Assembly (NCBI GenBank): GCA_964524845.1
Contig: CAZGFX010000002.1
Location: 157,422-221,421, forward strand
Source of the DNA: an uncultured Gammaproteobacteria bacterium
Lineage (GTDB): Bacteria > Patescibacteriota > Patescibacteriia > CAZGFX01
DNA: 64,000 bases
Reading direction: 5' to 3'
Positions 8,132 to 52,025 of this stretch are shown piece after piece; the stretch's first letter is position 1, and each line of letters opens with the position of its first letter. Position numbers and translations under genes: made by a program. The notes beneath the pieces are model-generated. The model did no database searches, was not told where the DNA came from, and worked only from the letters and a program-made list of their open reading frames with translations.

Positions 8132-8632
8132 TTAAATTATAATCAAAATTTTATTATCTAACCTAGCACTTAGTTTTTCGGCCAATGCCTTGCCTTCTTG
8201 ACTAAACGGCCATGCAAATAATTTAACATCTTTTGTGTGCGGTATATCTTTAATCGCTTCTTTAAACATCTCTACTGCATAACCCTTTCGTCTGTATTCT
8301 GGTATGGTAAACGCGGCACAAAGATATAATGCTTCATATTCATCCTGTGATTTGGTCAAATCAAGTAATTCTCGTTCGTTAATCTCTCTCTTTAAGAATT
8401 TCTCCATCAGTTCTGTTTGTGTCGGCAACACAACCACCCAGCTAATCGGTTCTCCGTTATCCAATCTATATACTACAGTTTTCGGATGCAACTGCTGTAA
8501 TTTGTAAAACGACTCCCGCGTTATTGGCATTTGATTAGGATCACTCGCGGTTCCGAAAAATCGCTCCGCAATATTTAACATTTTATCTAACACTTTTTCA
8601 TCCATATTTTTGTTTCTTACGCACCATAACAT
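8132..8632 (-). CDS. GNAT-family N-acetyltransferase
   Basis: 166 aa; LCAAFTIPEYRRKGYAVEMFKEAIKD matches the GNAT motif A (R-x-x-G-x-A) context. Confidence 0.5.
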   Translation of the reverse strand: MLWCVRNKNMDEKVLDKMLNIAERFFGTASDPNQMPITRESFYKLQQLHPKTVVYRLDNGEPISWVVVLPTQTELMEKFLKREINERELLDLTKSQDEYEALYLCAAFTIPEYRRKGYAVEMFKEAIKDIPHTKDVKLFAWPFSQEGKALAEKLSARLDNKILIII

Positions 8633-17290: not shown

Positions 17291-17439
17291 ATTTTTATTT
17301 TTACTTAAGATAGGCCCGGTTTATTCCGGTTGCGTAGATTATGACACGAAACCAAAATAAAATAAAGTATTTACCCACAGATAACCCACACTGCAAAAAC
17401 GTTATTTATAGTCAATTATCTTTGTTTTGAGAGTTTTGA

Positions 17440-17469
17440 AATAAAAAAATCCCAGAGACTTGCTCTGGG
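17440..17469 (-). terminator. intrinsic terminator (CCCAGAG-ACTTG-CTCTGGG) after the 17513-17827 gene
   Basis: 7-bp perfect stem at 17451-17469; minus-strand tail ATTTTTTTATTTC. Confidence 0.6.
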
Positions 17470-17512
17470 AAAAATTTAGATATTACTTTATTTAACGAAC
17501 AAATTAGAAACC

Positions 17513-17827
17513 TTAATCTGTTATGGTGCTAATTTGAGTTACGGTTCCGAAATCTTTTCTATCCGTTACCATTTTTCTAATTTTTCCAGCCAATTTAATT
17601 TTTATGAGACCGGTATCAAATCTGATACTTTTTTCCTTCATCCAATTATGAAGCCGCGGGTCTTCAACTGGAAGATTGCAAAAAAATTTACTTTCTTCTT
17701 CTGTAATTTTTATAACATTATTATCTTCTTTTTCATTTTTTTCACGAAGATCTATCACATTCCCCGCCAACATTTGTTTTTCCAAAAAGAGCCAAGCCGA
17801 TTTCAGAAATTTCAACATTTTTAACAT
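17513..17827 (-). CDS. small hypothetical protein (104 aa)
   Basis: ORF followed by a terminator; no recognisable family. Confidence 0.35.
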   Translation of the reverse strand: MLKMLKFLKSAWLFLEKQMLAGNVIDLREKNEKEDNNVIKITEEESKFFCNLPVEDPRLHNWMKEKSIRFDTGLIKIKLAGKIRKMVTDRKDFGTVTQISTITD

Positions 17828-18019
17828 AAGTCACTCCTCTTTTTTTGTTGTTTTCGGCCAAAGACCGATCAGCTTCGTCCCGTTCGCGGAATTTTAGCTG
17901 ATTGTTTATATTGTTTATCGTTAAATCATATCAAATATTAAACAATACATCAATGTGCTTTTTCGCAAACACAAAAAAGACTAAAAAGTCTTTTTTAAAC
18001 ACATAATTCACTTAAATTA

Positions 18020-29637: not shown

Positions 29638-31041
29638 TTAAAAACCCAACTTATTTTTTAGATATTCTGGAATTTCCTTTATAGCGATACGCTCTTGTGC
29701 CATCGTATCACGATCTCTTATGGTTACAGCGGAATCTGTAAGTGAATCAAAGTCAAATGTTATACAATATGGCGTTCCGATTTCATCTTGTCTGCGATAT
29801 CTCTTTCCAATGCTTCCTGTTTCATCGTACGCCGATGAATATGTTTTTTGGAGCGACATGAAAAGATCATACGCAGGTCCAGAAAGCTCTTCTTTTTTTG
29901 AAAGAGGAAGTACCGCCACCTTATACGGAGCAATTCTAGGATGAAATCGAAGAACAACTTCAACTTCTTTCACCGCTTCAGTAGTTGTACTTCTACCTCC
30001 TTCTATTTCTGTATAAGCATCACATAAAAACGCCAACATCGCTCTATCAGCACCGGCAGATGTTTCTACAATCCACGGAGTAAAACGCTCTCCGGTTGTT
30101 TGCTCAAAATATTGCAAGTCCTTACCTGAAAACTTCATGTGTTGAGAAAGATCCCAATCACCTCTATTATGAATACCTTCAAGCTCTTTCCATCCTATTG
30201 GAAAATAAAACTCTATATCATGTGCGGCACGCGCGTAATGAGCCAACTCATGTTCTCCATGCGCTCTATATCGCAAATGATCTGGATTAATACCATGATC
30301 GATATACCACTGACGACGAATCTCTTTCCACTCCCCGAAATATCTATCCGCCTCATCAGGACGAACGAAATATTGTTGTTCCATTTGTTCAAACTCTCTC
30401 GTACGAAATATGAAATTACCCGGAGTAATCTCGTTTCTAAACGCCTTACCAACCTGTGCGATTCCAAAAGGAATTTTCATGCGCGAGCTTTCTCTTACAT
30501 TTTCATAGTTTACATAAATACCCTGAGCCGTCTCCGGACGAAGATACACATTCGATGTATCTGTTTCAACGGCTCCCATTTGGGTTTTGAACATAAGATT
30601 AAACTGACGAACTTCAGAAAGCTCTCCTCCGCAATCAGGACACACTATCTCGCTCGCCATTCGAACTCCTGGTGTAAAATTTGGCTTAAGTCCCTTCGCT
30701 TCTAGCAAGTGATCGGCGCGCCATCTTTTTTTGCACTCTTTACAATCAACTAATGGATCATGAAATCCATCAATATGTCCGGATGCCTTCCATATCATCG
30801 GATGCATAAATATAGAAGAATCAAGAGGAACAACATCGTCACGAAGTTGTGTCATAGATCTCATCCACGCTTGTTTAATATTGTTTTTCATTAGTGTTCC
30901 AAGCGGACCATAATCATAACAAGAATTAAGACCACCATATATTTCTGATGATTGAAATATAAAGCCACGGCGCTTCGCGAGACTTACTATCTTGTCCATC
31001 GTCATATTTGGCTTTTCGTCTTCTATTTTATTTTCTTTCAT
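29638..31041 (-). CDS. glyQS: glycyl-tRNA synthetase, alpha2 (eukaryote/archaeal-like) type
   Basis: 467 aa; class II motifs, characteristic GlyRS insertion and C-terminal anticodon-binding domain ([14 protein letters not shown]..., [13 protein letters not shown]). Confidence 0.9.
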
Positions 31042-31230
31042 ATTAAAATATATTACTTATTCACGTACTGGATTATGGCTTATTTTACAATAAAAGTGAA
31101 GTCCTGATTCTTTTTTTTCCATATATTTATACACTTTAAATTAATATGAAAAACAAAACAATCAAAAAAAGCGAATAAAAGCCAAAAAGATGAGGATTTT
31201 TAAGTTTTCCACACATAATAAACAATAGAC

Positions 31231-31259
31231 TTGACTTTTTAGGAAGGATGATGTATGCT
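31231..31259 (+). promoter_or_regulatory. near-consensus sigma70-type promoter TTGACT-17-TATGCT
   Basis: TTGACT at 31231-31236, exact 17-nt spacer, TATGCT at 31254-31259; predicted TSS about 31266. No protein gene lies downstream on this strand. Confidence 0.5.
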
Positions 31260-31341
31260 GTTAACACTTGCTTAATGCGAGATTAAATAACTGAAACAAG
31301 AACAATTAGAAATCCGTTGTAAACGGAGAAGGAGCACGCAA

Positions 31342-31398
31342 ATGGCAAGAGCATCCCCGCTCAATAAAATGAGCAGAACGTCCTTTGAAGAGAAGTAA
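31342..31398 (+). CDS. micro-ORF MARASPLNKMSRTSFEEK (18 aa) with GAAGGAG SD, 7-nt spacer
   Basis: gaGAAGGAGcacgcaaATG; codons verified to TAA at 31396-31398. Confidence 0.25.
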   Translation: MARASPLNKMSRTSFEEK

Positions 31399-31823
31399 CC
31401 CGGCCCGCGACCGCACGCCAGCCATAACCCGAAAAACTCGGTCGGCTGTCTGAGCAGCGGTCAAATCGGGAACGCGCCCGCAATCCAATTTGTATAATGA
31501 AAAAATTGGGCGCACTCCCGGCTCGAAAAAAAATCCGCAAAACAATGATCGCGGAACAAAAAGTCCGGAAAAACTCCGGCACGATGAAAAACAACAAGAA
31601 AAACGGGGATTCAGAAATGAAATTAGATCACGGCTAGATTTAGGGGCAAAAGAAAAGCCCCGAAAAAAGCTTCGAAAAGAGGCATAAACCGGAGATTATT
31701 TTAAAAAAACAACACAAACCTCTCCGGGAAAAAAATCCGGCAAACCGGCAATCATATGCGGCACCAAAAACCATGGAGGCTACAGTGAAAATGAGATACG
31801 GTTGAATGCAATAAATTACATAT

Positions 31824-31862
31824 AAGTCCTTGTTATAATGACAAGGACTTTTCCGTTTTTTT
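31824..31862 (+). terminator. strong intrinsic terminator (AAGTCCTTGT-tataatg-ACAAGGACTT plus TTCCGTTTTTTT)
   Basis: 10-bp perfect stem at 31824-31850, U-rich tail 31851-31862. Confidence 0.8.
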
Positions 31863-31982
31863 AATAACAAACATTGATATTTTTATATTTTTATATACAA
31901 TTAACACAGCCTGCTTGACAGGTACAAATAACCTAAATAACCGAACAAGAGCAGTCTTTGATGACTGTAAGGAGCGTGTATC

Positions 31983-32033
31983 ATGGTTAAGATCAGAGGT
32001 CAGACGTCTTATCTTAAGATGTCGAAAGCGTGA
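31983..32033 (+). CDS. micro-ORF MVKIRGQTSYLKMSKA (16 aa), TAAGGAG SD, 8-nt spacer
   Basis: gtAAGGAGcgtgtatcATG; stop TGA at 32031-32033. Confidence 0.25.
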   Translation: MVKIRGQTSYLKMSKA

Positions 32034-32122
32034 AAGCGAAAAGAAAAAGGCCGCTGTTTCTCCTCGTTTATCAGCATGATTTTGCTGAAACCACGGAAAA
32101 AAAACATGGAAGGAGGTTCATT

Positions 32123-32170
32123 ATGAACCGCATCCGTGCCCAAAACAACCTGCATCAAAAAATGATGTAA
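32123..32170 (+). CDS. micro-ORF MNRIRAQNNLHQKMM (15 aa), GGAAGGAGGT SD, 5-nt spacer
   Basis: catgGAAGGAGGttcattATG; stop TAA at 32168-32170. N-terminus M-x-[KR]-I-R-[GA]-Q is shared with the previous micro-ORF. Confidence 0.25.
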   Translation: MNRIRAQNNLHQKMM

Positions 32171-32293
32171 GCGCCAAAAAAGCAAGGTCTCACCCAAGAA
32201 GTACTGGTCACTCCATTTATCGCAACAAATTAAGCGCGGTATAGAAGCGTGCCAAGAAAAACTTGGAAATAAAAACATGAAAGGAGTTTCAAA

Positions 32294-32314
32294 ATGAAAC
32301 GAAATTATGGCTAA
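32294..32314 (+). CDS. micro-ORF MKRNYG (6 aa), AAAGGAG SD, 7-nt spacer
   Basis: catgAAAGGAGtttcaaaATG; the upstream context aaaaacatgRAAGGAG repeats that of the previous micro-ORF. Confidence 0.15.
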   Translation: MKRNYG

Positions 32315-32380
32315 CCCTTCTCACAAAGACAAAAGGTTTTGTCAAAACTCGAGAGCGAGAACGATATAATAATTATAAGA

Positions 32381-32411
32381 CCCCACCCGAAGAGGTGGGG
32401 CATTTTTTATT
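32381..32411 (+). terminator. intrinsic terminator (CCCCACC-cgaaga-GGTGGGG plus CATTTTTTATT)
   Basis: 7-bp all-GC stem at 32381-32400 with U-tract. Confidence 0.75.
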
Positions 32412-32565
32412 GAAAAATAAACAATATTAAAAAATAATTTAAAATAGCATTTTTAAATCGATAAATATTGCACCAAACCCATATTGACAAATACATCATC
32501 AAGTCGAAACAAATTAACAATACTCACACAAACATAAATATTATTCATTCGTTTCTCATTTCAAT

Positions 32566-32592
32566 AAAAAATGCCCCGGTTTTTAACCGAGG
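32566..32592 (-). terminator. terminator downstream of the subtilisin gene
   Basis: Minus strand GCCTCGGTT-aaaa-AACCGGGGC (8/9 bp) followed by ATTTTTTATT. Confidence 0.5.
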
Positions 32593-32611
32593 CAATAATA
32601 GTCTACGCATT

Positions 32612-34096
32612 TCATTTTACGATTGTGAGTTTTTTTGAGACAGGTTTCATGTGTTCAGACTGAAGTCTATATATATATATTCCTGAACTGACCGCATGAC
32701 CATCATCGTTTCTACCATCCCATGTGATGAAGTGTCTTCCCGGATACTGATATGCATCAAAAAAAGTTCTGACCTTCTGTCCGAGTGTATTATATAGAAT
32801 TACAGTGGTACGACCAGGTCGACTGATTACATACTCGATCGTAGTTGATACATTGAACGGATTAGGATAGTTCTGATTGAGTTCCACAGATGGTTTTTGA
32901 AATGATCCCCTCTCTGGAAATATCGCTTCAAAAATTTTTGGCAATGACACAGCATTCTGGCTACCACCATCTTTATCAAGCGCAATGTTTCCGTTTTCTC
33001 TTATAATGTTTTTTATATCAATATTCTTTCCTGTCATAATCATAAGAGCAACGATTCCTGCAACTTGCGGGGCGGCATAACTCGTACCATCAACCCTGTG
33101 ATATCTAGAACCACACCATGTGGTCAGTACCTTGTTTCCAGGAGCAAACGCATCAACACTACCGAAATTAGACCAGTAAGAAACAGTTCCTACGGAATCG
33201 AGACTTCCTACTGATATGACGGATTTGTATCCGTTCGTTGAAATACGACCAAAATTCGTATAATGAGCTGGAAATACGGACATGTTCCATCCTTCGTTTC
33301 CGGAAGAGCACACGAAATAAATCTGAATTCCTGCAGAATCCGCTTTTTGTTCAGCGGTACGAATTAATTCTTCCCACGCCATAAGATCAAATTTTAAACC
33401 AAGACTCCAATTGATAACAAGATTTTTCTTGTTTTGAACAGCCCACAGAATTCGATCGTTTGCGGCAATAAGGATTGTACTTACATATCCATATCCATTG
33501 TCTTCGAGCACTCGCACCGCATACACATCTCCACAAGAAATACCGAATACTCCTTTTTTATTGTTCGCAGTAGCGCCGACAATGCCGGCTATTTCCGTAC
33601 CATGAACAAAAACCTCTTTCGGAACATACTCCATGGAATCTCCGTGTAGAACAGTATAGTTTTTCCCAAGTTTTATATTCTGAAGATCTTGATGTTCAAT
33701 TACCCACTTATCAGATCGTCGAACAAGTTCAATTCCGGAGTCATGAATATCAATCACAGTGTTTGACGGATCCAAAAGGTCGCCGTACTTTTGAAATACT
33801 GAAAAGAGTTCCATGTATTCAATAGCCCAGCTTCGCAATGGATCATTCGGATCAAACCGATATTGAGTTTTGTTTGACCCATATGCGGTCACCAAAGCAT
33901 CTTCTTCAATAACCTCAACTGAAGTGGTTTTTAAAAAAGATTTTGTCTCAACCTTGTACCAACTTCCAAACACATGCACCGCATTATTTGGAATATCTTT
34001 TTCGTTTTTCATCTTTATCAGATATCCTTGAGAATATCCTGAAAAAGAAATCAAAAAAGAAAAAGCAATCGTAATAATTACTTGAAATGTTCTCAT
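32612..34096 (-). CDS. secreted subtilisin-like (S8) serine protease with type IX secretion system C-terminal sorting domain
   Basis: Signal peptide; HGTEIAGIVGA (His box), GTSYAAPQVAGIVALM (Ser box); C-terminal 85 aa LNQNYPNPFNVSTTIEYVISRPGRTTVILYNTLGQKVRTFFDAY...ITWDGRNDDGHAVSSGIYIYRLQSEHMKPVSKKLTIVK is the Por_Secre_tail/T9SS type-A CTD pattern (NYPNPFN...G-Y-Y-L...KK-L-K). Confidence 0.85.
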   Translation of the reverse strand: MRTFQVIITIAFSFLISFSGYSQGYLIKMKNEKDIPNNAVHVFGSWYKVETKSFLKTTSVEVIEEDALVTAYGSNKTQYRFDPNDPLRSWAIEYMELFSVFQKYGDLLDPSNTVIDIHDSGIELVRRSDKWVIEHQDLQNIKLGKNYTVLHGDSMEYVPKEVFVHGTEIAGIVGATANNKKGVFGISCGDVYAVRVLEDNGYGYVSTILIAANDRILWAVQNKKNLVINWSLGLKFDLMAWEELIRTAEQKADSAGIQIYFVCSSGNEGWNMSVFPAHYTNFGRISTNGYKSVISVGSLDSVGTVSYWSNFGSVDAFAPGNKVLTTWCGSRYHRVDGTSYAAPQVAGIVALMIMTGKNIDIKNIIRENGNIALDKDGGSQNAVSLPKIFEAIFPERGSFQKPSVELNQNYPNPFNVSTTIEYVISRPGRTTVILYNTLGQKVRTFFDAYQYPGRHFITWDGRNDDGHAVSSGIYIYRLQSEHMKPVSKKLTIVK

Positions 34097-41750: not shown

Positions 41751-44700
41751 TTATTGGTTTTCTACCATACTTACATCTGTTCCCGTTTCGCTCGTAGGAG
41801 TTGTTTCGCCTGATGATGTTGTGGTCACAGGAGTTGAAACAGGTTGATCAACAATAACTGGAGAAGCTGGGGTTTCCGGAATAGGCTCACTTGTTTCTAT
41901 TATCTCCGCAAGCGAATCTGTTGGTGGTGTTGGATTGTTTATATATATTGGTACGTTTGGATTTATCGTATCGCGATTAATCTGATCTGTACCCACTTCG
42001 AATGCGAGCCATGTCACATCAACAAACTTCGCACAACCAGGTTCAGTCGCGACATCACACACGGGCTCTGACATCTCTATATCAAAACCTTCTTCGGTTT
42101 GATTACTTACCCATACGCGTCCTTTCCACGATCTAGCAGTATCAGGATCTTCAAACTTCGGCGTCAATGAAACAAGAACCTCATTTTTTTTCGGTGCGAC
42201 AAATGCAATATGTTGTGTTATTTGATTATATGAAAATCTAACAGACCCTGCCACATCTTTTGAAACAACCGAGAGACCACCTTTCAATTCAAGATTCTTT
42301 TCAAGTGTTACTGCATCCCGTACGACAAGTGTTCCTTGTATTTCAACATTTCCTTTCACGACAAGATCTTTTTCAAATACCGCTTTTTCTTTCACAACAA
42401 GAGCACCCGTCAAAGACATTATTGCAACATCAATTTGTAAACCATCTCCCAAAGACCATTTATTGTATTGAGGATTAATGTCTTCAACAATATTTTGTAC
42501 GTTAGGATCTGGTGTTTGCTGAACATCGCTTGGATCAATATAGACTCCTTGTATATCTCCTGCGCTAGGCTGTACCTGAACATCATCATCGCCTTCGACT
42601 ACTTCTTCGTCATCAAAAACAAGACTTAAACCATATAATTCATCAGTCGTGGCCATTCCAATCCAATATTGCGGTTGAACAAAAACAATAACTGAATTAG
42701 TACTTGGTTCAATACCCGAACTCCATCCGCTCATCGCCTGTCCGACAACGAATCCAGGACCGGTTGCTTTGATAGCATATCCTGGCATATCAGGAGATGA
42801 AGATAGATAATCACCAGTCACAATATCAGCAGAATGATTTATATCAATCTTCACAGGTACTCGACCGACAAGCACGACAAGTTTTGAAGACTGATCGTCA
42901 GAAGTTGTTTCAAGTGTTGTGTTTGGATGTTCCGTAACAACTCCGATAACACTCTTACCAGATGTACGAGTTGCTTTAACAACCGACTCCGAATCAGACG
43001 GATCAATTGAAACCAAATCTCCTTGTTCTATTGATAAATCACCAACTTGATAATACTTAGCGAGATCAAATACTTGTCTATTAAGTTCATTTAAAGCACC
43101 GACAATTGATGTTGATGTGAATGTCCCATCAAGTTTCGTATTTGTATCATCCGCAAGCGCGATTGGTGATTCTGTGTGTGAATCAGCAAGTCCGTTTCCT
43201 ACATTTACGGTATCAGTCACTACTATATTTTTCGCAGTGAGTGTTCCTGCTCCGTTTGTTGAAATCAGCCCTCCGTCTGATGAGAATGATCCGATGGTAA
43301 GCGTACCACCAGAAATTCCGCTAGTTACAGCTAAATTATTGACCGATAGTGTTCCTAGTCCGTTTGATGTAATAAGACCATTATCAGATGAAAATGAGTT
43401 TGTTTTTATTGTGCCTGTTGTAATATTTCCCAAACCATCTGATTGTATTACTCCTCCGTCAGACGAAATTTTTGGCAATGAAAGCGCAAGCGTTCCGTTC
43501 ATAAGAGGATCGAGAATATTTGTTTTTGTTTTTTGCATCTCTTTGAGAAGCAACACGGATAGAATTTCATAATGAACGGAATCTGGGCGACCCTGATTAT
43601 CGAAAAACACAAGCTGAGGAAGAACTTCCGCTGCTTCTTCCGCAATCAAACCAAATGTCCTATTCTCTGGTAGATCAGGAAGCTCGTTTGGCGTATAACT
43701 TACTGGTCTCAAATCAAATATTTTCGATGTATCAGTTTCTATATCTGTAATACTCTTTTTATATCGTCGTGATGATGTATATTTAAATAATTGATTACTA
43801 CCATTTATATGAATAGCAGTACCTGCCGTACCACTCGAAGGAAGTCCATCAAAAGCAACTGTACTACTAGCATAAAAAGATCCTTCTATTTCTGTATAAC
43901 CCAAAAACGAATCTCCATTAACAAAAAAATCATTATCAGCTTCCAATCTTCCACCATAAAAATAGGCATCCCCATCTGAGGTAATAGAAAATCTGTTCAC
44001 ACTGTTTGTTTCTATATTAAAATCATTTGGGCCTGAGTTGGAATAAACTAAAACATTAGTATCGGAAAAAGCTATCTGTGGATCCTCGCTAGTAAGAAAA
44101 AGACTTCTATTCATATCTATGGAAGATCCGATTGTTATATTACTATCATCCGGGTCACCTAATATTAATTCGCGACCACTATATGAGACTGTAAGTGCCG
44201 TACCAGTCCAAGCACCACCATCACCTGACATAGACATTTTAAACTTACTAATATTAGGTGCAGAAGTATCAATACCCATAGAAACAGTATCATCGCCTGA
44301 TTTAAACATTAAAGTAGCATCCCCGGTACCCATTTGTTCTATTTTCAACATTGGTGTTGTTTCGGTACTGTTTTCATATATATGAAAATTTGCACTTGGT
44401 GCATTTGTGCCTAATCCAAATCTAATACTCGTTCCATTATAACCAGTATATCTAATATAAGAGTCTTCAAAATATCCTAATTTCATCTCTAAAGAATCAT
44501 CGTAAATTCCAGATAAATTTACCGATCCATCGCTAGGCATTACTCTAAAAAAACCATAAGAATTATCAAAAGTTGGCGGGTAAGATCCATCATTAAAACC
44601 TATAACAAAATCGTCATAAGATGTCGAACTATCAATACCCATTACATAATGTCCTGATGAAGACGATGTGTCAGAAACAAATCCAATTGCCGGATCTCCT

Positions 44701-47700
44701 GTACCAGCTTGTTGCAACATAAGCATAGGAGTTGTCTGTGTAGAGTTTTCATACAAGTGAAGATTCGTACTTGGAGTAGCAAAACCAAGTCCTATATTTC
44801 CACTCGAATCAATAACAAACCTATCACTTGTTCCAAGTCCTGTCGTGCTTATTTTAAACTTATCACTATCAGAATCATCTACGCCCATGGTAAATGAATT
44901 CGTTCCTTCAGCAAGTTGAAACCCAATCGCAGTATCATAATCACCTGCATTTGTGTTTACAACAAAAACATTTGTGTTTATAGCAGATGAAGATGCTACA
45001 TCAAGCATTGCATCTGGCGACGTATCACCTATACCCATATATCCATTACTGTTTATACGCATTCTTTCATAAAGATCACCATTAAGTGATGTTTGCAATG
45101 AAAAATAACTGTCTCGTGTCGAAGCGGTATCGTTCCACGCACCCTCAGTCCCAACGATAATTCGCGCCGACCCATCAACTCCTGGATCATCCACGGATCC
45201 TGAAAACCACTGATTAAACAAAACTCCTGTCTGTGTATTAGAAGAAGCTTGTCTTGTGTTCGTTATCTCAATAAAATCTGTAAGACCTCCATCAGTTCCC
45301 GTTTGTTCTATATCAAGAAGTGACGATGGTGGATATAATGGATTAGAAAAAGCTCCTACTCCAACAAGTCCGCCACTTGTTACAGATAAACGACGTGTTC
45401 CTGCTGTCGTGAGATCAATGGTATCTGCTCCAGATGAGTATACACCAGTATTTGTATCTCCAACAAAAGATATTGAAGGATTTCCTACTGCACCCAGAGG
45501 ATGATAAGCGTATCCACTTGAATTAACTTGAAACAAATCCCCACTACCGACTGTGAAGAGTGACGCAGGAGACGAATCTCCTATACCAACATATCCTGCA
45601 TTATCAACACGCATAGCTTCAATCATGCTTCCTGTATTTCTTACATTAAAACGCATCGACGAGACACCAGAATTAACACCCGCACTCTCCCAAACAGTAT
45701 CTATACTTCCGGCTTCAAGTCCCATACCATCATTATCCTCAAGATATGTGACAATTCCAGACCCAAGTCCTGTATTATCCATTGATGGACGAGTTACGTT
45801 CATAGTCAGTGTATCAATCACAGTGGCTGTGGTATTTGCTTTTGACAAATGAAGAATACTAGAAGGAGTATTCGTTCCTATTCCTATATTTCCACTCGAA
45901 TCAATTACAAACCTATCGTTTGTACCAAGCGCTGTTGTAGATATTTTAAACTTATCAGAATCAGAATCATCAATACCCATAGTAAAAGTATTTGTTCCAT
46001 CAGCGAGTTCAAAACCTATTTGAGAATCGTAATTTCCTGCATTCGTATTTGAAATTGTAAACTGAGTATTTGCTGCACCTGATGACATAATTTCAAGAAG
46101 TTGATCTGGTGTTATGTCTCCTACACCAACGTTTCCTCCATAAAGAAGTGTCATAACAGTGTTTGAAAGCGTCTGCCCATTAGTTGTGCCAGAAGAAAAA
46201 GCCAGATCGTTTGTATTCTGTTTGTGTATTGTCCAATCACCATATCCTCCTCCTTGATTATCAAATGTCAACCAGTTATATACACTTGAGTTTGCTTGAT
46301 TACTAGAAATAGTAAACTTACTATAAGATGTTGCCGTAGTACCAACACTTATGTTTCCAGAAGAATTAATCGTCATACGATTTGTTCCTCCTGTAGCAAA
46401 ATCTAGGGCATCTGCTCCTGATGAGTATATACCAGTGTTCGGATCACTGACAAAAGACACCGACGGTGTTCCTACTGCTCCGAGAGGATAAAGCGCATAT
46501 CCACTTGAATTAACCTGAAACAAATCTCCATTTCCGACTGTGAGAAGTGATGCTGGTGTCGCATCACCAATACCAACATTTGCGCTTAATATGTTCACAT
46601 AATCTGTCGCTTGATCATCGAATGCTATTCGTCCGGCAATTGATCCAAGACCCAACCAATCATCGTCTGCATTCGCATCAGAAAAAGCATCACCAGAAGT
46701 CATAGAACCAACAGATGTTACATCACCTGTTCCAGCAGATACCCATGTTAAATTTCCACTTCCATCGTTTCGAAGAACTGTATTTGATGAACCCTGAGAA
46801 CCAGGCCACGAGTATGTTACATTATTAACTTTTACGATGTTTCCGGATGAGTTGACTTGAAACAAATCACCATCTCCAACAGTAAATAAAGACGCTGGCG
46901 TTGCGTCACCAACACCAAGGTTTGCGCTCATTATATTTACATAATCGGTGGCCTGATCATCAAACGCAACTCGTCCAGCACTTGCTCCAAGTCCGAGCCA
47001 ATCATCATCAGCATTCGCATCCATAAAAACATCCCCTCCTGTCATAGAACCGACTGTTGTAATATCTCCTGTTCCTGAACCCGTAACCCATGTGAGTGTT
47101 CCGCTTCCATTATTGCTTAATACAGTACCTGCACCTCCTTGTGCTGACGGCCACGAGTATGTAACATTATTAACTTTTACGAGGTTTCCTGATGAGTTTA
47201 CTTGAAATGTATCTCCGCTACCTACTGTAAGAAGAGATGCTGGTGTCGTCTCTCCAATACCGACGTTCGCACTCAAAATATTTACATAATCGGTAGCCTG
47301 ATCATCAAAAGTAATACGTCCAGCAGCTGCTCCAAGTCCAAGCCAATCATCATCAGCATTCGCATCCATAAAAACATCTCCCGATGTCATAGAACCAACC
47401 GTAGTTATATCACCAGTTCCTGAAACGGTAACCCAGGTAAGATTACCACTTCCATCGTTTCTTAAGTATGTGTTTGATGCTCCCTGAGAAGCTGGCCACG
47501 AATATGAAACATTATTTACTTTTACAAGATTACCGTATGAGTTAACTTGAAATAAGTCTCCGTTTCCAACTGTGAAAAGAGATGTCGGTGAAGAATCTCC
47601 TATACCAATATATCCTTCATAACTAATTCTAAAAGCCTCTGACATTGAGCTGTTATTCATGTGATTAAATATTACAGAGGCTTTTTCTCTTGTTTCACGA

Positions 47701-50700
47701 GGATCCTCCCACACGACATCAATTCCAGCCGCCTGAGACAAACCATCTTGATCGTTTTCCAAATAAAATCCAATGCTGGCACCGAGTCCTTGAGCACCAG
47801 AACTATCATAATTTATTCTCTCTATACGTAACGCCTCCATAATATCAGACGCATCATTCTGAGAAAGAACCGAGAGTGTAGAAGCCGGAGTACTTGTACC
47901 AACACCAAGCCTATTATTTGTATCATCCCAGAATAGATTTGAATTATCTTGAGTGTACACACCACTTCCCCCAGCAAATACAAGTGAGCCCGATGTAAAT
48001 TGAGTACCGGTTCCTGTACCGCCTCTTGTAACATTTAAATATTGTTCTGATGTTAATGAGTTTGTTCCATTCCAATACGCTATATATCCGTTTGTTCCTG
48101 TTCCTGTTGCAACAGTTCCTGATGTTGGAAGCGTAATACTTGTAGCTCCTGATGTTGTAAAAAATAGCGTGTTCCCTGCAGTACCAAGAGGAACAACACC
48201 GGTATTATCTTGAAAAGTTATCGTCTTATCAGATACTGTTGGATCTGTTATAGCAAATGTTGTTTCGTATGTGTTGTCTGTTGCTCCTTCAAAAACCAGA
48301 GGAGAGGCACCTTGAATAACACCTCCGAGAGTCAGTGCATTAGAAGCGTTTCCGATCGATACAGCACCAGTTGATGTCCCTGTGTTTATATTTGTAGTAA
48401 AGTTTGAACTTGCATTTATAGAAGACGTTGCTCCTGACACAGTAAGTCCTCCTGTTCCTTGTATAACTCCTGTTGTTGAGTTAACACCAACAAAAGATGC
48501 TGCACCAGCACCTGAAACAGACCATTGTCCATCTGTAATAACAACATTTGCTGATGCATTTCCTATTGTAACCGTCCCCGTTGATGTACCGGTGTTTATG
48601 TTTGTAGCAAAATTTGAACCATGATTAATATATACAGTGTTTCCTGAAGTTACAAAAGAACCAGTGTTTGTAATACCCCGAACAGAAACTATTGCACCAG
48701 ATGAATTTACTTGAAACAAGTCTCCATTTCCTACAGTAAACAAAGAATCCGGAGATGAATCACCCACACCAACGTTTCCTCCATTAAAAACAGCAGAATA
48801 TGTGTTGTCACGACTATTTGCAGTATCAGTATCAACATATAAACCTGTAATTGTGTTTCTATATCCTCCAAAATCATCGTCTATGTTTATATGCATACCA
48901 TACACGGTGTCCACATAATCCTCGTTTTGTGGATTGTTTGAAATATTTAATTTATATCCATATAGTGTAGCAATATCACTTGGATTCATTGTTACATTAT
49001 GAGAAATACTTGAGGAAGCATCGGTTTGTAGATCTAAAGAGGTCAAACTAAGAACGGGATTTGTTACATCGCTTGACGAAATAGATATTGTATCATCTGT
49101 AATAGATGGCGAAAGGTTTGTTCCTGATCTGGTCCAATATCCCAGCGTTCCTGTTGATGGTGGTGTTGTAGTAAGATACCCTGAAGAATCAGTATATACA
49201 CCACTTTCCGTACCGAGCGAATTAAATAAAATATTTCCTGATGATGCTAAACCAGTGAGACCTGATGCGACACCGGCTGACGACACGTCCCACGATGATG
49301 TGTTTATAGCGAGCGTGTTTGATCCACCACCGATTGATACGGCGCCGGTTGATGTTCCTGTATTTATGTTTGTCGCGAAATTAGAACTTGCGTTCAATGA
49401 TACTGCTCCACCCGAGCTTGTCACTGCTCCAGTGTTTGTAATTCCTTGAACAGATGCTATTGCGCCAGATGAGTTGACTTGAAAAAGATCTCCGTTCCCT
49501 ACTGTGAAAAGAGATGCAGGAGTTGTATCTCCGATACCAATATTTCCTGCAGGAGTGATATTTAAAAATTCGTTCGTTCCTTCTAGAATACGCAAATTAC
49601 CTTCGCTTGACCCATCTGTTTCTTGTATACCGATTTTCCAATCGCGAGCAGTCGTTGTTTCGGCTGCGGTTGAATATACATGAAGCGATGATGGTCCTAA
49701 ATATAAATCTCTCCAACGCAAAGAAGACGATCCGAGATCATAAGAATCATCACTGTTTGGTCCAACTGATCCGGCAACTTGTAATTTAAATGTCGATGGT
49801 GCACTTGTGCCAACACCAACGTTTCCACTACTATTAACATATAAACTATTTACAGATGCGCCATCCTCAATTACAAAAACATTGATACTACCTCCTGTCG
49901 TATCTTGAATTCTAAAATCATCGTTTGCATTCACACCCATTTTCCATTGCCTAGCATCATTAATAAAATCAAAATCAGCAGCTCCATTAAGACCTGTATT
50001 TTCTATTCTTCCTGCAATATAACTTCCGGCCGCTGATCCAGAAACATGCAATCTTTGTTGAGGACTAGCAGTCCCGATCCCAAGCCTATTATTCGTATCA
50101 TCCCAAAAAAGGTTTGTATTATCTTGTGAGTACACTCCGCTTCCTCCAGCAAACACTAGTGATCCTGAAGTAAACTCAGTACCTGTACCGGTACCACCAC
50201 GTCCAACAGAAAGGTATTGTTCTGATGTTAATGAGTTTGTTCCATTCCAATACGCGACGTATCCATTTGTACCAGTTCCTGTTGCCATGGTTCCTGATGT
50301 TGGAAGAGTTATGCTTGTTGCTCCTGATGTTGTAAAAAATAGTGTGTTCCCTGCAGTGCCAAGAGGAACAACACCGGTATTATCTTGAAATGTTATTGTC
50401 TTATCAGATGCAGTGGTATCAGTGATTGAAAATGTAGTCTCATAAGTATCGTCTGTAGCTCCTTCAAACACAAGAGGAGAAGCACCCTGAATAATACCTC
50501 CTAGAGTTAATGCATTAGAAGAGTTTCCAATTGATACAGCTCCTGTTGATGTGCCTGTGTTTATATTTGTCGCAAAATTAGAATTTTCGTTGATAGATGA
50601 CGAGGCACCAGACACAGTAAGTCCTCCTGTTCCTTGTATAAGTCCTGTGGTTGAATTAACACCGACAAACGAAGCTGCACCAGCACCTGAAACAGACCAT

Positions 50701-52025
50701 TGTCCATCTGTAATAGCAACATTTGCTGATGCGTTTCCTATTGTAACGGTACCGGTTGATGTTCCTGTGTTTATATTCGTTGCAAAGTTTGAATTTGCAT
50801 TTAAAGAGATGACCGCACCACTTGCTGTGGTTGTTCCTGTAACAGTAAGGCCGGTTAAGCCTGATGCGACACCGGCTGATGACACATCCCACGATGATGT
50901 ATTTATTGCTAGTGTATTTGAATTTCCACCTATTGATACAGCACCCGTTGATGTTCCTGTATTGATGTTTGTCGCGAAATTAGAACTTGCATTCAGAGAT
51001 GCTATTCCGCCACTGGTTGTAGTTGCTCCCGTAACAGTAAGGCCGGTAAGACCTGATGCGACACCGGCTGACGACACGTCCCACGATGATGTATTTATTG
51101 CTAGTGTATTTGAATTTCCACCGATTGATACGGCGCCGGTTGATGTTCCTGTGTTTATGTTTGTAGCAAAATTAGAACTTGCGTTCAAAGATATTGCTGC
51201 GCCCGAGCTTGTGACTGCTCCAGTGTTTGTAATTCCTGTCATGTATGATGTTCCGTCCACTTCGAGATCATTCTGAATATATAAATCACCAAGTCCATCG
51301 GCGTTGTTTGCTGTACCAGCTGAACCAGTACGGATAAGTCCTCCATCTAGAACCCGAAGAGCGGATGTGCCATTGTCCTGTACATCGAGAATACCTCCTG
51401 TTCCTTGTTGATTGATGACGATCGCTGATCCACTTGATGTATTTACGGTCACAGATGTATTTGCTTGAAATGTGTATGATCCTGTTATTGTTTCGTTTTC
51501 TGATGTGTCTGCAAATTCTTCTTCTGATTTACCATCAAGAGCGTCTGTGTTAAATGCATAAGGAGATGCGGTCATTCTTTTTCTTGGCAAAAAAACTTCT
51601 TCGTACGATCCATTGTTATCAGCATCAAGACGAACCTCGAGATATAAGTTATCAGTATTGAAATCAAGAGAACCAGGAAGAGATGTATGAGTTCCTATAT
51701 CAACTGAGAATATTCCATCAGTAAGTGAAACTTGAGATGTTCCTGAATTCCACGTCTCTGTATAAGCGGCCGATCCTCCTGTGCTAACTGTAAAAAATGC
51801 AAACTGCATATTGTAACTGCTGTTTGCAATATTAATACCATTTGATGCTGTGATCTTGGCTTGATAAGAAAGTTTTTTGTTTATACCTGCGGCACCATAA
51901 ACAATCGGCACCCACGTAAAAAACAAACACGCTAAAACAAGCGCGGTAAGAAGCTTCCTTAAGACTGAAAATCGTATTAAAACAAGCATGGTAATTTTTA
52001 CGAAAACCTTTTCAGTTAGCGCCAA
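41751..52025 (-). CDS. giant (3424 aa) membrane-anchored, repeat-rich fibre-like surface protein with an internal phage tail-fibre S74-type intramolecular-chaperone-like module
   Basis: N-terminal TM/signal; Gly/Ser/Thr/Asn-rich beta-repeats; recurring motif [IV]G[IV]GDxxPxSL[FL]TVGxGDxFQVNSSG (tail-fibre-like NVGIGT..P class); about 64-aa and about 113-aa tandem repeat families; a large block duplicated 2160 nt apart. About 679 aa from the C-terminus lies SSRRYKKSITDIETDTSKIFDLRPVSYTPNEL...GLIAEEAAEVLPQLVFFDNQG...YEILSVLLLKEMQ (pattern of the peptidase-S74 chaperone domain), then a Pro/Thr-rich C-terminus. Confidence 0.85.
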   Translation of the reverse strand: MALTEKVFVKITMLVLIRFSVLRKLLTALVLACLFFTWVPIVYGAAGINKKLSYQAKITASNGINIANSSYNMQFAFFTVSTGGSAAYTETWNSGTSQVSLTDGIFSVDIGTHTSLPGSLDFNTDNLYLEVRLDADNNGSYEEVFLPRKRMTASPYAFNTDALDGKSEEEFADTSENETITGSYTFQANTSVTVNTSSGSAIVINQQGTGGILDVQDNGTSALRVLDGGLIRTGSAGTANNADGLGDLYIQNDLEVDGTSYMTGITNTGAVTSSGAAISLNASSNFATNINTGTSTGAVSIGGNSNTLAINTSSWDVSSAGVASGLTGLTVTGATTTSGGIASLNASSNFATNINTGTSTGAVSIGGNSNTLAINTSSWDVSSAGVASGLTGLTVTGTTTASGAVISLNANSNFATNINTGTSTGTVTIGNASANVAITDGQWSVSGAGAASFVGVNSTTGLIQGTGGLTVSGASSSINENSNFATNINTGTSTGAVSIGNSSNALTLGGIIQGASPLVFEGATDDTYETTFSITDTTASDKTITFQDNTGVVPLGTAGNTLFFTTSGATSITLPTSGTMATGTGTNGYVAYWNGTNSLTSEQYLSVGRGGTGTGTEFTSGSLVFAGGSGVYSQDNTNLFWDDTNNRLGIGTASPQQRLHVSGSAAGSYIAGRIENTGLNGAADFDFINDARQWKMGVNANDDFRIQDTTGGSINVFVIEDGASVNSLYVNSSGNVGVGTSAPSTFKLQVAGSVGPNSDDSYDLGSSSLRWRDLYLGPSSLHVYSTAAETTTARDWKIGIQETDGSSEGNLRILEGTNEFLNITPAGNIGIGDTTPASLFTVGNGDLFQVNSSGAIASVQGITNTGAVTSSGGAVSLNASSNFATNINTGTSTGAVSIGGGSNTLAINTSSWDVSSAGVASGLTGLASSGNILFNSLGTESGVYTDSSGYLTTTPPSTGTLGYWTRSGTNLSPSITDDTISISSSDVTNPVLSLTSLDLQTDASSSISHNVTMNPSDIATLYGYKLNISNNPQNEDYVDTVYGMHINIDDDFGGYRNTITGLYVDTDTANSRDNTYSAVFNGGNVGVGDSSPDSLFTVGNGDLFQVNSSGAIVSVRGITNTGSFVTSGNTVYINHGSNFATNINTGTSTGTVTIGNASANVVITDGQWSVSGAGAASFVGVNSTTGVIQGTGGLTVSGATSSINASSNFTTNINTGTSTGAVSIGNASNALTLGGVIQGASPLVFEGATDNTYETTFAITDPTVSDKTITFQDNTGVVPLGTAGNTLFFTTSGATSITLPTSGTVATGTGTNGYIAYWNGTNSLTSEQYLNVTRGGTGTGTQFTSGSLVFAGGSGVYTQDNSNLFWDDTNNRLGVGTSTPASTLSVLSQNDASDIMEALRIERINYDSSGAQGLGASIGFYLENDQDGLSQAAGIDVVWEDPRETREKASVIFNHMNNSSMSEAFRISYEGYIGIGDSSPTSLFTVGNGDLFQVNSYGNLVKVNNVSYSWPASQGASNTYLRNDGSGNLTWVTVSGTGDITTVGSMTSGDVFMDANADDDWLGLGAAAGRITFDDQATDYVNILSANVGIGETTPASLLTVGSGDTFQVNSSGNLVKVNNVTYSWPSAQGGAGTVLSNNGSGTLTWVTGSGTGDITTVGSMTGGDVFMDANADDDWLGLGASAGRVAFDDQATDYVNIMSANLGVGDATPASLFTVGDGDLFQVNSSGNIVKVNNVTYSWPGSQGSSNTVLRNDGSGNLTWVSAGTGDVTSVGSMTSGDAFSDANADDDWLGLGSIAGRIAFDDQATDYVNILSANVGIGDATPASLLTVGNGDLFQVNSSGYALYPLGAVGTPSVSFVSDPNTGIYSSGADALDFATGGTNRMTINSSGNISVGTTATSYSKFTISSNQANSSVYNWLTFDNQGGGYGDWTIHKQNTNDLAFSSGTTNGQTLSNTVMTLLYGGNVGVGDITPDQLLEIMSSGAANTQFTISNTNAGNYDSQIGFELADGTNTFTMGIDDSDSDKFKISTTALGTNDRFVIDSSGNIGIGTNTPSSILHLSKANTTATVIDTLTMNVTRPSMDNTGLGSGIVTYLEDNDGMGLEAGSIDTVWESAGVNSGVSSMRFNVRNTGSMIEAMRVDNAGYVGIGDSSPASLFTVGSGDLFQVNSSGYAYHPLGAVGNPSISFVGDTNTGVYSSGADTIDLTTAGTRRLSVTSGGLVGVGAFSNPLYPPSSLLDIEQTGTDGGLTDFIEITNTRQASSNTQTGVLFNQWFSGSVDDPGVDGSARIIVGTEGAWNDTASTRDSYFSLQTSLNGDLYERMRINSNGYMGIGDTSPDAMLDVASSSAINTNVFVVNTNAGDYDTAIGFQLAEGTNSFTMGVDDSDSDKFKISTTGLGTSDRFVIDSSGNIGLGFATPSTNLHLYENSTQTTPMLMLQQAGTGDPAIGFVSDTSSSSGHYVMGIDSSTSYDDFVIGFNDGSYPPTFDNSYGFFRVMPSDGSVNLSGIYDDSLEMKLGYFEDSYIRYTGYNGTSIRFGLGTNAPSANFHIYENSTETTPMLKIEQMGTGDATLMFKSGDDTVSMGIDTSAPNISKFKMSMSGDGGAWTGTALTVSYSGRELILGDPDDSNITIGSSIDMNRSLFLTSEDPQIAFSDTNVLVYSNSGPNDFNIETNSVNRFSITSDGDAYFYGGRLEADNDFFVNGDSFLGYTEIEGSFYASSTVAFDGLPSSGTAGTAIHINGSNQLFKYTSSRRYKKSITDIETDTSKIFDLRPVSYTPNELPDLPENRTFGLIAEEAAEVLPQLVFFDNQGRPDSVHYEILSVLLLKEMQKTKTNILDPLMNGTLALSLPKISSDGGVIQSDGLGNITTGTIKTNSFSSDNGLITSNGLGTLSVNNLAVTSGISGGTLTIGSFSSDGGLISTNGAGTLTAKNIVVTDTVNVGNGLADSHTESPIALADDTNTKLDGTFTSTSIVGALNELNRQVFDLAKYYQVGDLSIEQGDLVSIDPSDSESVVKATRTSGKSVIGVVTEHPNTTLETTSDDQSSKLVVLVGRVPVKIDINHSADIVTGDYLSSSPDMPGYAIKATGPGFVVGQAMSGWSSGIEPSTNSVIVFVQPQYWIGMATTDELYGLSLVFDDEEVVEGDDDVQVQPSAGDIQGVYIDPSDVQQTPDPNVQNIVEDINPQYNKWSLGDGLQIDVAIMSLTGALVVKEKAVFEKDLVVKGNVEIQGTLVVRDAVTLEKNLELKGGLSVVSKDVAGSVRFSYNQITQHIAFVAPKKNEVLVSLTPKFEDPDTARSWKGRVWVSNQTEEGFDIEMSEPVCDVATEPGCAKFVDVTWLAFEVGTDQINRDTINPNVPIYINNPTPPTDSLAEIIETSEPIPETPASPVIVDQPVSTPVTTTSSGETTPTSETGTDVSMVENQ
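46480..47560. repeat. three tandem copies of an about 339-nt (113-aa) unit inside the giant gene (VNNVTYSWP..QG...DANADDDWLGLG..AGRIAFDDQATDYVNILSANVGIGDATPASLLTVG)
   Basis: Near-identical DNA blocks starting near 46520, 46861 and 47200. Confidence 0.7.
50540..51290. repeat. intragenic tandem repeats of about 192 nt (64 aa: ASSNFATNINTGTSTGAVSIGGNSNTLAINTSSWDVSSAGVASGLTGLTVTG...) inside the giant gene; further copies near 48380-48620 and 49255-49450
   Basis: Repeated peptide strings visible on both the coding strand and antisense ORFs (50551-51276, 48382-48624, 49255-49449). Confidence 0.7.

Follow-up and report, generated by a model that had tools for sequence, protein, structure and literature searches.

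What is encoded in the largest gap without open reading frames (ORFs) of this genomic region? In the window, that is, the whole 64-kb stretch of DNA analysed, this gap covers 1570 nt (31042-32611) and is bordered by the genes of glycyl-tRNA synthetase (GlyRS) and of an S8 peptidase with a FlgD_ig/T9SS-type tail (table 1). The window is chromosomal, since it encodes several aminoacyl-tRNA synthetases, DnaX, Dus, TGT and a PorV-like protein, and its host, with 37% G+C and a type IX secretion system (T9SS), has hardly any sampled relatives. An initial annotation had described in this gap a promoter-to-terminator unit of about 600 nt, with modular CCGG hairpins separated by A-runs and one short ORF preceded by a Shine-Dalgarno (SD) site. 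We find that the gap probably holds two neighbouring RNA genes, U1 and U2, which would be transcribed separately and are homologous in part; both are predicted from sequence to be mostly non-coding and to lie on the plus strand. The second unit and several additional mini-ORFs were absent from that annotation. We consider it likely that both units are real structured RNA genes. GlyRS and the S8 peptidase are both encoded on the minus strand, so that U1 would run against the direction in which its neighbours are transcribed.

Two other places in the window deserve mention. The second largest stretch without a long ORF (17291-18019, 729 nt) seems to contain a small SD-led ORF of 104 codons on the minus strand (AGGAG at 17838) rather than a U1/U2-like RNA. 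About 10 kb away from U1, an ORF of 3424 codons for a giant protein occupies positions 41751-52025 of the minus strand.

Table 1. Features of the gap between the GlyRS and S8 peptidase genes (positions in the window)
Feature	Position	Strand	Remarks
GlyRS gene	29638-31041	-	Borders gap
GlyRS promoter-like site	31100-31072	-	Inside block 100% identical in relative L087
U1 promoter-like site TTGACT-17-TATGCT	31231-31259	+	Sigma-70-like; transcription start inferred near 31266
U1, predicted transcript, 597 nt	31266-31862	+	From promoter/terminator signals and fold z-score
5' hairpin UCCGU-UGUAA-ACGGA	31313-31327	+	Directly 5' of SD; U2 counterpart 31952-31967
SD AAGGAG (31329-31334) and sORF1 MARASPLNKMSRTSFEEK (31342-31398)	31329-31398	+	18 codons
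G+C-rich branched domain	31401-31525	+	Predicted three-way junction; begins right 3' of sORF1 stop
Hairpin A, UCCGC, A-rich 12-nt loop, GCGGA	31534-31555	+
Hairpin B, CCGGA-AAAAC-UCCGG	31563-31582	+
A-tract AAAAACGGGGA	31597-31609	+	Predicted partner: terminator tail UUUUCCGUUUUU, 31849-31861
Hairpin UUCA-GAAA-UGAA, then hairpin UAGAUC/GAUUUA	31610-31642	+	First hairpin carries AUG of MKLDHG
Mini-ORF MKLDHG	31617-31637	+	Weaker
A-loop hairpin GGGGC-A4GA4-GCCCC	31643-31661	+	First of chain 31643-31748
A-loop hairpin GCUUC-GAAAA-GAGGC	31669-31683	+
Hairpin CCGGAGA/UCUCCGG	31689-31727	+	A-rich 25-nt loop
Hairpin CCGG-CAAA-CCGG	31737-31748	+	End of A-loop chain
GGAGG, then mini-ORF MRYG (31791-31805)	31775-31805	+	Mini-ORF weaker; motif common to U2
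U1 intrinsic terminator	31824-31862	+	12-bp stem and U-run
U2 promoter-like site TTGATA-16-TACAAT	31874-31901	+	10/12 matches
U2, second predicted transcript, ~505 nt	31908-32412 (approx.)	+	Partial U1 paralogue
SD AAGGAG and sORF2a MVKIRGQTSYLKMSKA (31983-32033)	31969-32033	+	16 codons
SD AAGGAGG and sORF2b MNRIRAQNNLHQKMM (32123-32170)	32110-32170	+	15 codons
U2 module homologous to U1 31526-31645	32211-32322	+	Hairpins A' and B', SD, mini-ORF
SD AAGGAG (32281-32286) and mini-ORF MKRNYG (32294-32314)	32281-32314	+	6 codons; inside U2 module
U2 intrinsic terminator CCCCACC-CGAAGA-GGUGGGG and U-run	32381-32412	+
S8 peptidase terminator	32594-32572	-
S8 peptidase gene	32612-34096	-	FlgD_ig/T9SS-type tail; borders gap

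The unit first described is borne out by the sequence signals at both of its ends, with a promoter-like site matching 9 of 12 consensus positions upstream and an intrinsic terminator at the 3' end, and the segments quoted for it, its GAAGGAG-N7-ATG and its 18-codon ORF were all found in place. RNA folding, which the initial annotation had pointed to as a check, gave for U1 a z-score against shuffles of -5.6 on the plus strand and -3.4 on the minus strand, and for its 3' two-thirds (31526-31862) of -6.5 and -3.4. CCGG occurs eight times in U1 against 2.7 ± 1.4 expected, a count that none of 500 dinucleotide shuffles reached, and the eight copies make up four self-complementary helices. Likewise, stems of at least 4 bp with a loop of at least 75% A (A-loop stems) number seven, compared with 0.63 ± 0.78 in the shuffles (0/500 reach seven). 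These excesses of A-loop stems, CCGG and folding stability over shuffled sequences indicate that the modular arrangement of hairpins is genuine and not a product of chance. The A-runs said to separate the modules are indeed there, but runs of five or more A are not more frequent than dinucleotide composition predicts (11 against 8.6 ± 1.9) and reflect the general A-richness of the single strands. G+C content (0.49-0.52 against 0.37 overall) and A-over-T skew both reach their maximum for the 64-kb window at 31300-31600. The longer plus-strand ORFs of the gap (46-65 codons) owe their Lys-rich translations to A-runs in T-poor sequence, and no Pfam domain was found in any gap ORF in any frame. Thus, strand-specific promoter and terminator signals, fold z-scores, composition, the lack of Pfam or Rfam matches and a paralogous module with compensatory changes (below) agree with the earlier description of this DNA as a unit that is not coding-like and has an SD-led short ORF.

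Both units open with a hairpin, a strong SD site and an ORF of 16-18 codons, and more SD-led mini-ORFs follow in the 3' direction; as a whole, short stems rich in G+C alternate with A-rich single strands, which form their loops and link one stem to the next. For the branched domain of U1, the minimum free energy (MFE) fold is the same as the centroid (-46.4 kcal/mol, z -2.2). Further 3', a helix between the A-tract and the terminator tail, AAAAACGGGGA:UUUUCCGUUUUU, is present in both the MFE and the centroid fold of U1 and, if formed, would close the 3' domain. A similar pairing is predicted in U2, between the A-tract AAUAAAAA and the interrupted terminator U-tail UUUUUAUU, and in both units the A-tract predicted to pair with the U-tail sits just 5' of the hexapeptide module. 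We also noticed by eye that AGCCAUAA in the G+C-rich domain of U1 (31420-31427) is perfectly complementary to UUAUGGCU in U2 (32305-32312), at the end of the MKRNYG mini-ORF, so an 8-bp contact between the two RNAs is possible.

Folded as 31905-32412, U2 reaches z-scores of -4.3 on the plus and -2.7 on the minus strand, and it has three A-loop hairpins against 0.38 expected. Aligned over their full length the two units are not significantly similar (z 1.7), their kinship being confined to modules. A local alignment of U1 31535-31636 with U2 32220-32313 was equalled by 2 of 500 shuffles, and an alignment of the 5'-terminal 110-125 nt of U1 and U2 by 13 of 1000. Moreover, a covariance model built from U1 31526-31645 alone recovered U2 32211-32322 with 22.1 bits (E ~0.01) as its sole other match on both strands of the window (128 kb); no further copy was found with it in the window, in 35 loci and in about 20 kb of extra flanks. 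In an alignment fitted to the structure model and comprising only two sequences, three hairpins show complete (100%) pairing in U1 as well as in U2, including four double compensatory changes. In U2, hairpin A is preserved despite one compensatory change and one wobble change, and hairpin B reads CCAAG-AAAAA-CUUGG, with three compensatory pairs. The module alignment has 92.9% of its cells paired, a value that falls to 45% or less when the partners are slid; this measure of structure conservation refers to one paralogous module of 110 nt. U2 also has an internal repeat of 43 nt (32088-32130 and 32259-32301).

Next to U2, a perfect 19-nt inverted repeat, GGGGCATTTTTTATTGAAA, is found at 32397-32415 on the plus strand and at 32559-32577 on the minus strand. 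Its copies form the tails of the U2 and S8 peptidase terminators, which stand face to face with an AT-rich spacer of 143 nt between them, and no third copy occurs in the window. This 19-mer may represent a tail common to both terminators or, alternatively, the two ends of a small MITE-like insertion.

The short ORFs raise the question of whether the units are made for their RNA or for their peptides. The initial annotation had seen a single SD-preceded ORF; its 18 codons are confirmed, but U1 has further SD-like mini-ORFs (MKLDHG and MRYG) and, taken together, the two units contain four AAGGAG-N7-8-ATG sites (table 1). In the window, AAGGAG-N5-9-ATG occurs 13 times against 2.65 ± 1.83 expected; of the 13, four coincide with true gene starts and another four fall within the 1-kb stretch of U1 and U2. 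The translation regime is SD-poor and of the type of the Fibrobacterota-Chlorobiota-Bacteroidota (FCB), with a small SD-led subset: an SD site precedes only about 4 of the 36 genes of the window, the others having AT-rich leaders without one. The SD-led genes (starts at 8632, 14117, 24619 and 34096) encode a GNAT acetyltransferase, the PorV-like protein, a hypothetical protein of 182 aa and the S8 peptidase, all with AAGGAG(G) at 6-9 nt. With so few SD-led genes and four sites in 1 kb, the SDs of U1 and U2 therefore equal the best of the genome and are unusually concentrated. Pattern scans of viral and metagenome contigs with the 5' modules returned only ordinary gene starts, such as those of Dam, DegV and FlhA, which indicates that these modules resemble genuine initiation regions and carry no family-specific signal.

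U1 and U2 might accordingly be regarded as mRNAs for tiny basic peptides of 18, 16, 15 and 6 residues, the structured remainder being UTR or intercistronic sequence that controls stability or translation, a possibility that we consider unlikely. Besides the quality of the SDs and of the initiation regions, it can call on the common N-terminus M-x-K/R-I-R-G/A-Q of sORF2a and sORF2b, written with different Arg (AGA and CGU) and Gln (CAG and CAA) codons; the anchored score of this pair has p ~0.004, or ~0.012 over all three pairs. The hexapeptides MKLDHG and MKRNYG are also similar (p ~0.006), but this is explained equally well at the RNA level, 15 of their 21 nt being identical inside the conserved hairpin module. 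Furthermore, sORF1 and sORF2a are dissimilar (score -4), the peptides are too short for a homologue search, and the sORFs cover only ~9% of U1 and ~22% of U2, while the rest is the most structured and compositionally most deviant DNA of the window. Selection on the mini-ORFs at the peptide level is thus possible from their sequences, but not established.

A motif common to the mini-ORFs, AAAUGARA-(N0-9)-AYGGYU-RA, has two exact matches in the window against 0.03 expected. It accompanies MRYG (31789-31805) and MKRNYG (32292-32314), and a related site is that of MKLDHG (31615-31637); all three end in Tyr/His-Gly-stop. The presence of this Gly codon beside the GlyRS gene may be a coincidence. As for the leader peptide suggested in the initial annotation, a role in attenuation is unlikely because no plus-strand gene precedes the terminator; a leader-peptide attenuator was rejected for both units, each of which ends in a terminator and is followed by genes on the minus strand.

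The units were also compared with known RNA families and elements. At gathering thresholds, no Rfam 15 family matched anywhere in the window, and a search of 31000-32700 at E ≤ 10 gave only chance-level matches of at most 21 bits, far below threshold; the families covered include OLE, ROOL, GOLLD, HEARO, RNAIII, CsrB/Rsm, CrcZ, 6S, RNase P, SRP and T-box. No tRNA or tmRNA was found in the window by ARAGORN. A cluster of DnaA boxes, as expected of an origin, was rejected: the window has 15 boxes (10.8 expected), of which one lies in the gap. We also rejected a sponge of the CsrA type: GGA occurs 10 times in U1 (11.7 ± 2.5 expected) and six times in U2 (7.1), ANGGA four times in U1 (4.2) and five in U2 (2.6), with no motif enrichment, and the loops are A-only. 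The ARN-type motif AAnAAnAA is present nine times in U1 against 5.6 ± 3.0, a number reached by 78 of 500 shuffles, and four times in U2 against 3.0. No gene for Hfq, CsrA or bS21 was seen in the ~100 kb examined, a part of the genome that is uninformative for the whole.

In their length (0.5-0.6 kb), beads-on-a-string hairpins, 5'-proximal sORF and stand-alone promoter and terminator, U1 and U2 would fit base-pairing riboregulators of the RNAIII type, that is, long multi-hairpin RNAs that pair with mRNAs in trans and whose small ORF is a second function. Nevertheless, seed loops that are C-rich or otherwise distinctive are lacking, no target was found and Rfam holds no relative; the loops of both units are almost pure A and would therefore confer little pairing specificity. 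We judge this explanation rather improbable.

A more sceptical explanation is that the gap holds a non-functional relic, decayed genes or a decayed mobile element folding by chance. Among 5.8 billion proteins, the best non-self match of the GlyRS is 68% identical, except for one relative with 93% identity, L087, a 1.96-kb contig (ENA ERZ27247864) that ends inside the U1 promoter, at the -35 box (...TTGACTTTTTAGGA). The 205 nt between GlyRS and this point (31042-31246, L087 1-205) are 86.5% identical, compared with 47% at the 4-fold degenerate sites of GlyRS, so the divergent promoter region of GlyRS and U1 is under clear constraint. The -35 box of U1 and the 70 nt upstream of it are 90-93% identical in L087, and this constraint, seen in the sequence, lends indirect support to a functional U1 promoter. 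Directly upstream of GlyRS, a block of 42 nt (31064-31105) is 100% identical in L087, a possible conserved element of the GlyRS promoter or 5'-UTR.

Beyond L087, neither U1 nor U2 was recovered. No match came from nhmmer searches of L082 and of 80 GlyRS loci from GTDB species, nor from the covariance model on loci of the next-nearest lineages. The contigs of the nearest lineages (P0002-P0005 and P0007; GlyRS 65-68% identical) lack a large gap upstream of GlyRS and differ in the order of the genes around it. The S8 peptidase search returned only the query itself, and the four longest minus-strand ORFs, concatenated, matched no spurious gene call on the contigs of relatives. By these sequence searches, U1 and U2 are to date found in one poorly sampled lineage. 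A relic would fit such an orphan sequence in a gene order of its own, with a 19-nt inverted repeat adjoining U2. Against it, a pseudogene was rejected on the lack of any Pfam signal in the gap ORFs and a phage or plasmid origin by blastn against phages and plasmids, which gave no match. Promoters, terminators and SDs are intact, the fold excess is strong and strand-specific, U1 and U2 differ by compensatory changes, and the promoter region is conserved well above neutral. We therefore regard a relic as very unlikely.

Hardly credible, finally, is a functional minus strand, with a long leader or terminator array between the peptidase and GlyRS genes such as a T-box-like GlyRS leader or a read-through insulator: the flanking genes do lie on that strand, which folds above shuffles (z -3.4) and whose hairpins and U-runs score as terminators (31579-31565 and 31555-31534), but the peptidase has its own terminator and GlyRS its own promoter-like site, no T-box or other Rfam family matches either strand, the units being antisense to GlyRS, and z-scores, promoter/terminator pairs and the four SD-ATG sites favour the plus strand.

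With regard to function, we tentatively propose that these structured RNAs are lineage-restricted regulators of the dual-function or sponge type, although the odds are somewhat against so specific an assignment. The SD signals are observed, and ribosomes would presumably load on the mini-ORFs and translate them; such loading could, as in RNAIII-like dual-function RNAs, yield tiny peptides or stabilise and remodel the RNA. Since the A-rich loops and linkers recur, one partner may be bound at many sites, following the logic of CsrB/RsmZ and CrcZ. The A-loop hairpins and A-rich linkers might then form a multivalent platform that titrates a partner binding A-rich RNA, by a sponge mechanism of the CsrB/CrcZ type; candidates are a protein of the Hfq or S1 type and the 30S subunit.

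SD sites and A-rich single strands are the two initiation signals available in SD-poor FCB organisms. Clusters of SD minigenes and A-rich single strands that capture 30S subunits or an A-rich-RNA-binding factor would constitute a class of ribosome-engaging decoys, a speculative reading to which we give little credence. If true, global translation or a small subset of SD-led genes would be tuned by an undescribed class of RNA in an SD-poor FCB member.

How do U1 and U2 compare with known systems? Staphylococcus aureus RNAIII, SgrS/SgrT and SR1/SR1P are, like U1 and U2, stand-alone promoter-to-terminator RNAs of about 0.5 kb, and dual-function sRNAs of the RNAIII type share with them many hairpins, A-rich linkers, an SD-led short ORF at the 5' end and a non-coding bulk. 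U1 and U2, however, have no sequence or Rfam relationship to these RNAs. The loops of RNAIII are C-rich and directed against SD sites, whereas those of U1 and U2 are A-rich, and instead of the single ORF of RNAIII-type RNAs there are several mini-ORFs in a tandem paralogous pair.

The sponge RNAs are similar in another way. CsrB, RsmY and RsmZ, which bind CsrA, and CrcZ/CrcY, the Hfq/Crc sponges (PMC4063720, PMC5113210), carry many copies of a short single-stranded motif on or between hairpins, as U1 and U2 do. Paralogous pairs such as CrcZ/CrcY and RsmY/RsmZ are common among sponges, and U1 and U2 also form such a pair. In CrcZ, the A-rich motifs that titrate Hfq are the Hfq-binding element (PMC4063720). 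On the other hand, GGA and ANGGA are not enriched in U1 and U2, AAnAAnAA is not significantly so, and there is no Rfam match; SD-led mini-ORFs are not a feature of CsrB/CrcZ-type sponges. Promoters of the CrcZ/CrcY type are RpoN/CbrB-dependent; that of U1 looks sigma-70-like. OLE, ROOL, GOLLD and HEARO resemble the two units in being 500-600 nt long and highly structured by prediction, in having A-rich unpaired regions and in lacking a long ORF. Nevertheless, no covariance model of these families matches them, and those RNAs are widely conserved and have long-range helices, whereas U1 and U2 consist mostly of local hairpins and are found in one lineage.

In SD-poor Bacteroidia, SD-dependent specialised translation is exemplified by the autoregulation of rpsU/bS21 (PMC9976891, PMC7797042). 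U1 and U2 share with this system strong SDs in a setting where most genes have none. Their SD-led ORFs of 4-6 codons may also recall the bar minigenes of phage lambda. About 4 of 36 ordinary genes here do use AAGGAG, and nothing ties U1 and U2 to bS21 or peptidyl-tRNA drop-off. What is most unusual about them is that strong SD minigenes are so concentrated in a genome poor in SDs.

U1 and U2 matter less than a widely conserved RNA would, since they are so far confined to one lineage and have as yet no associated phenotype, partner or target. If real, they are an unclassified pair of structured RNAs of 0.5-0.6 kb from a deep, almost unsampled T9SS lineage, a candidate family that joins the short list of long bacterial non-coding RNAs, and they offer a concrete test case for the role of strong SDs in a largely SD-free genome. 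Compared with the systems above, these candidates are best filed as long structured or dual-function bacterial regulatory RNAs, outside every named family.
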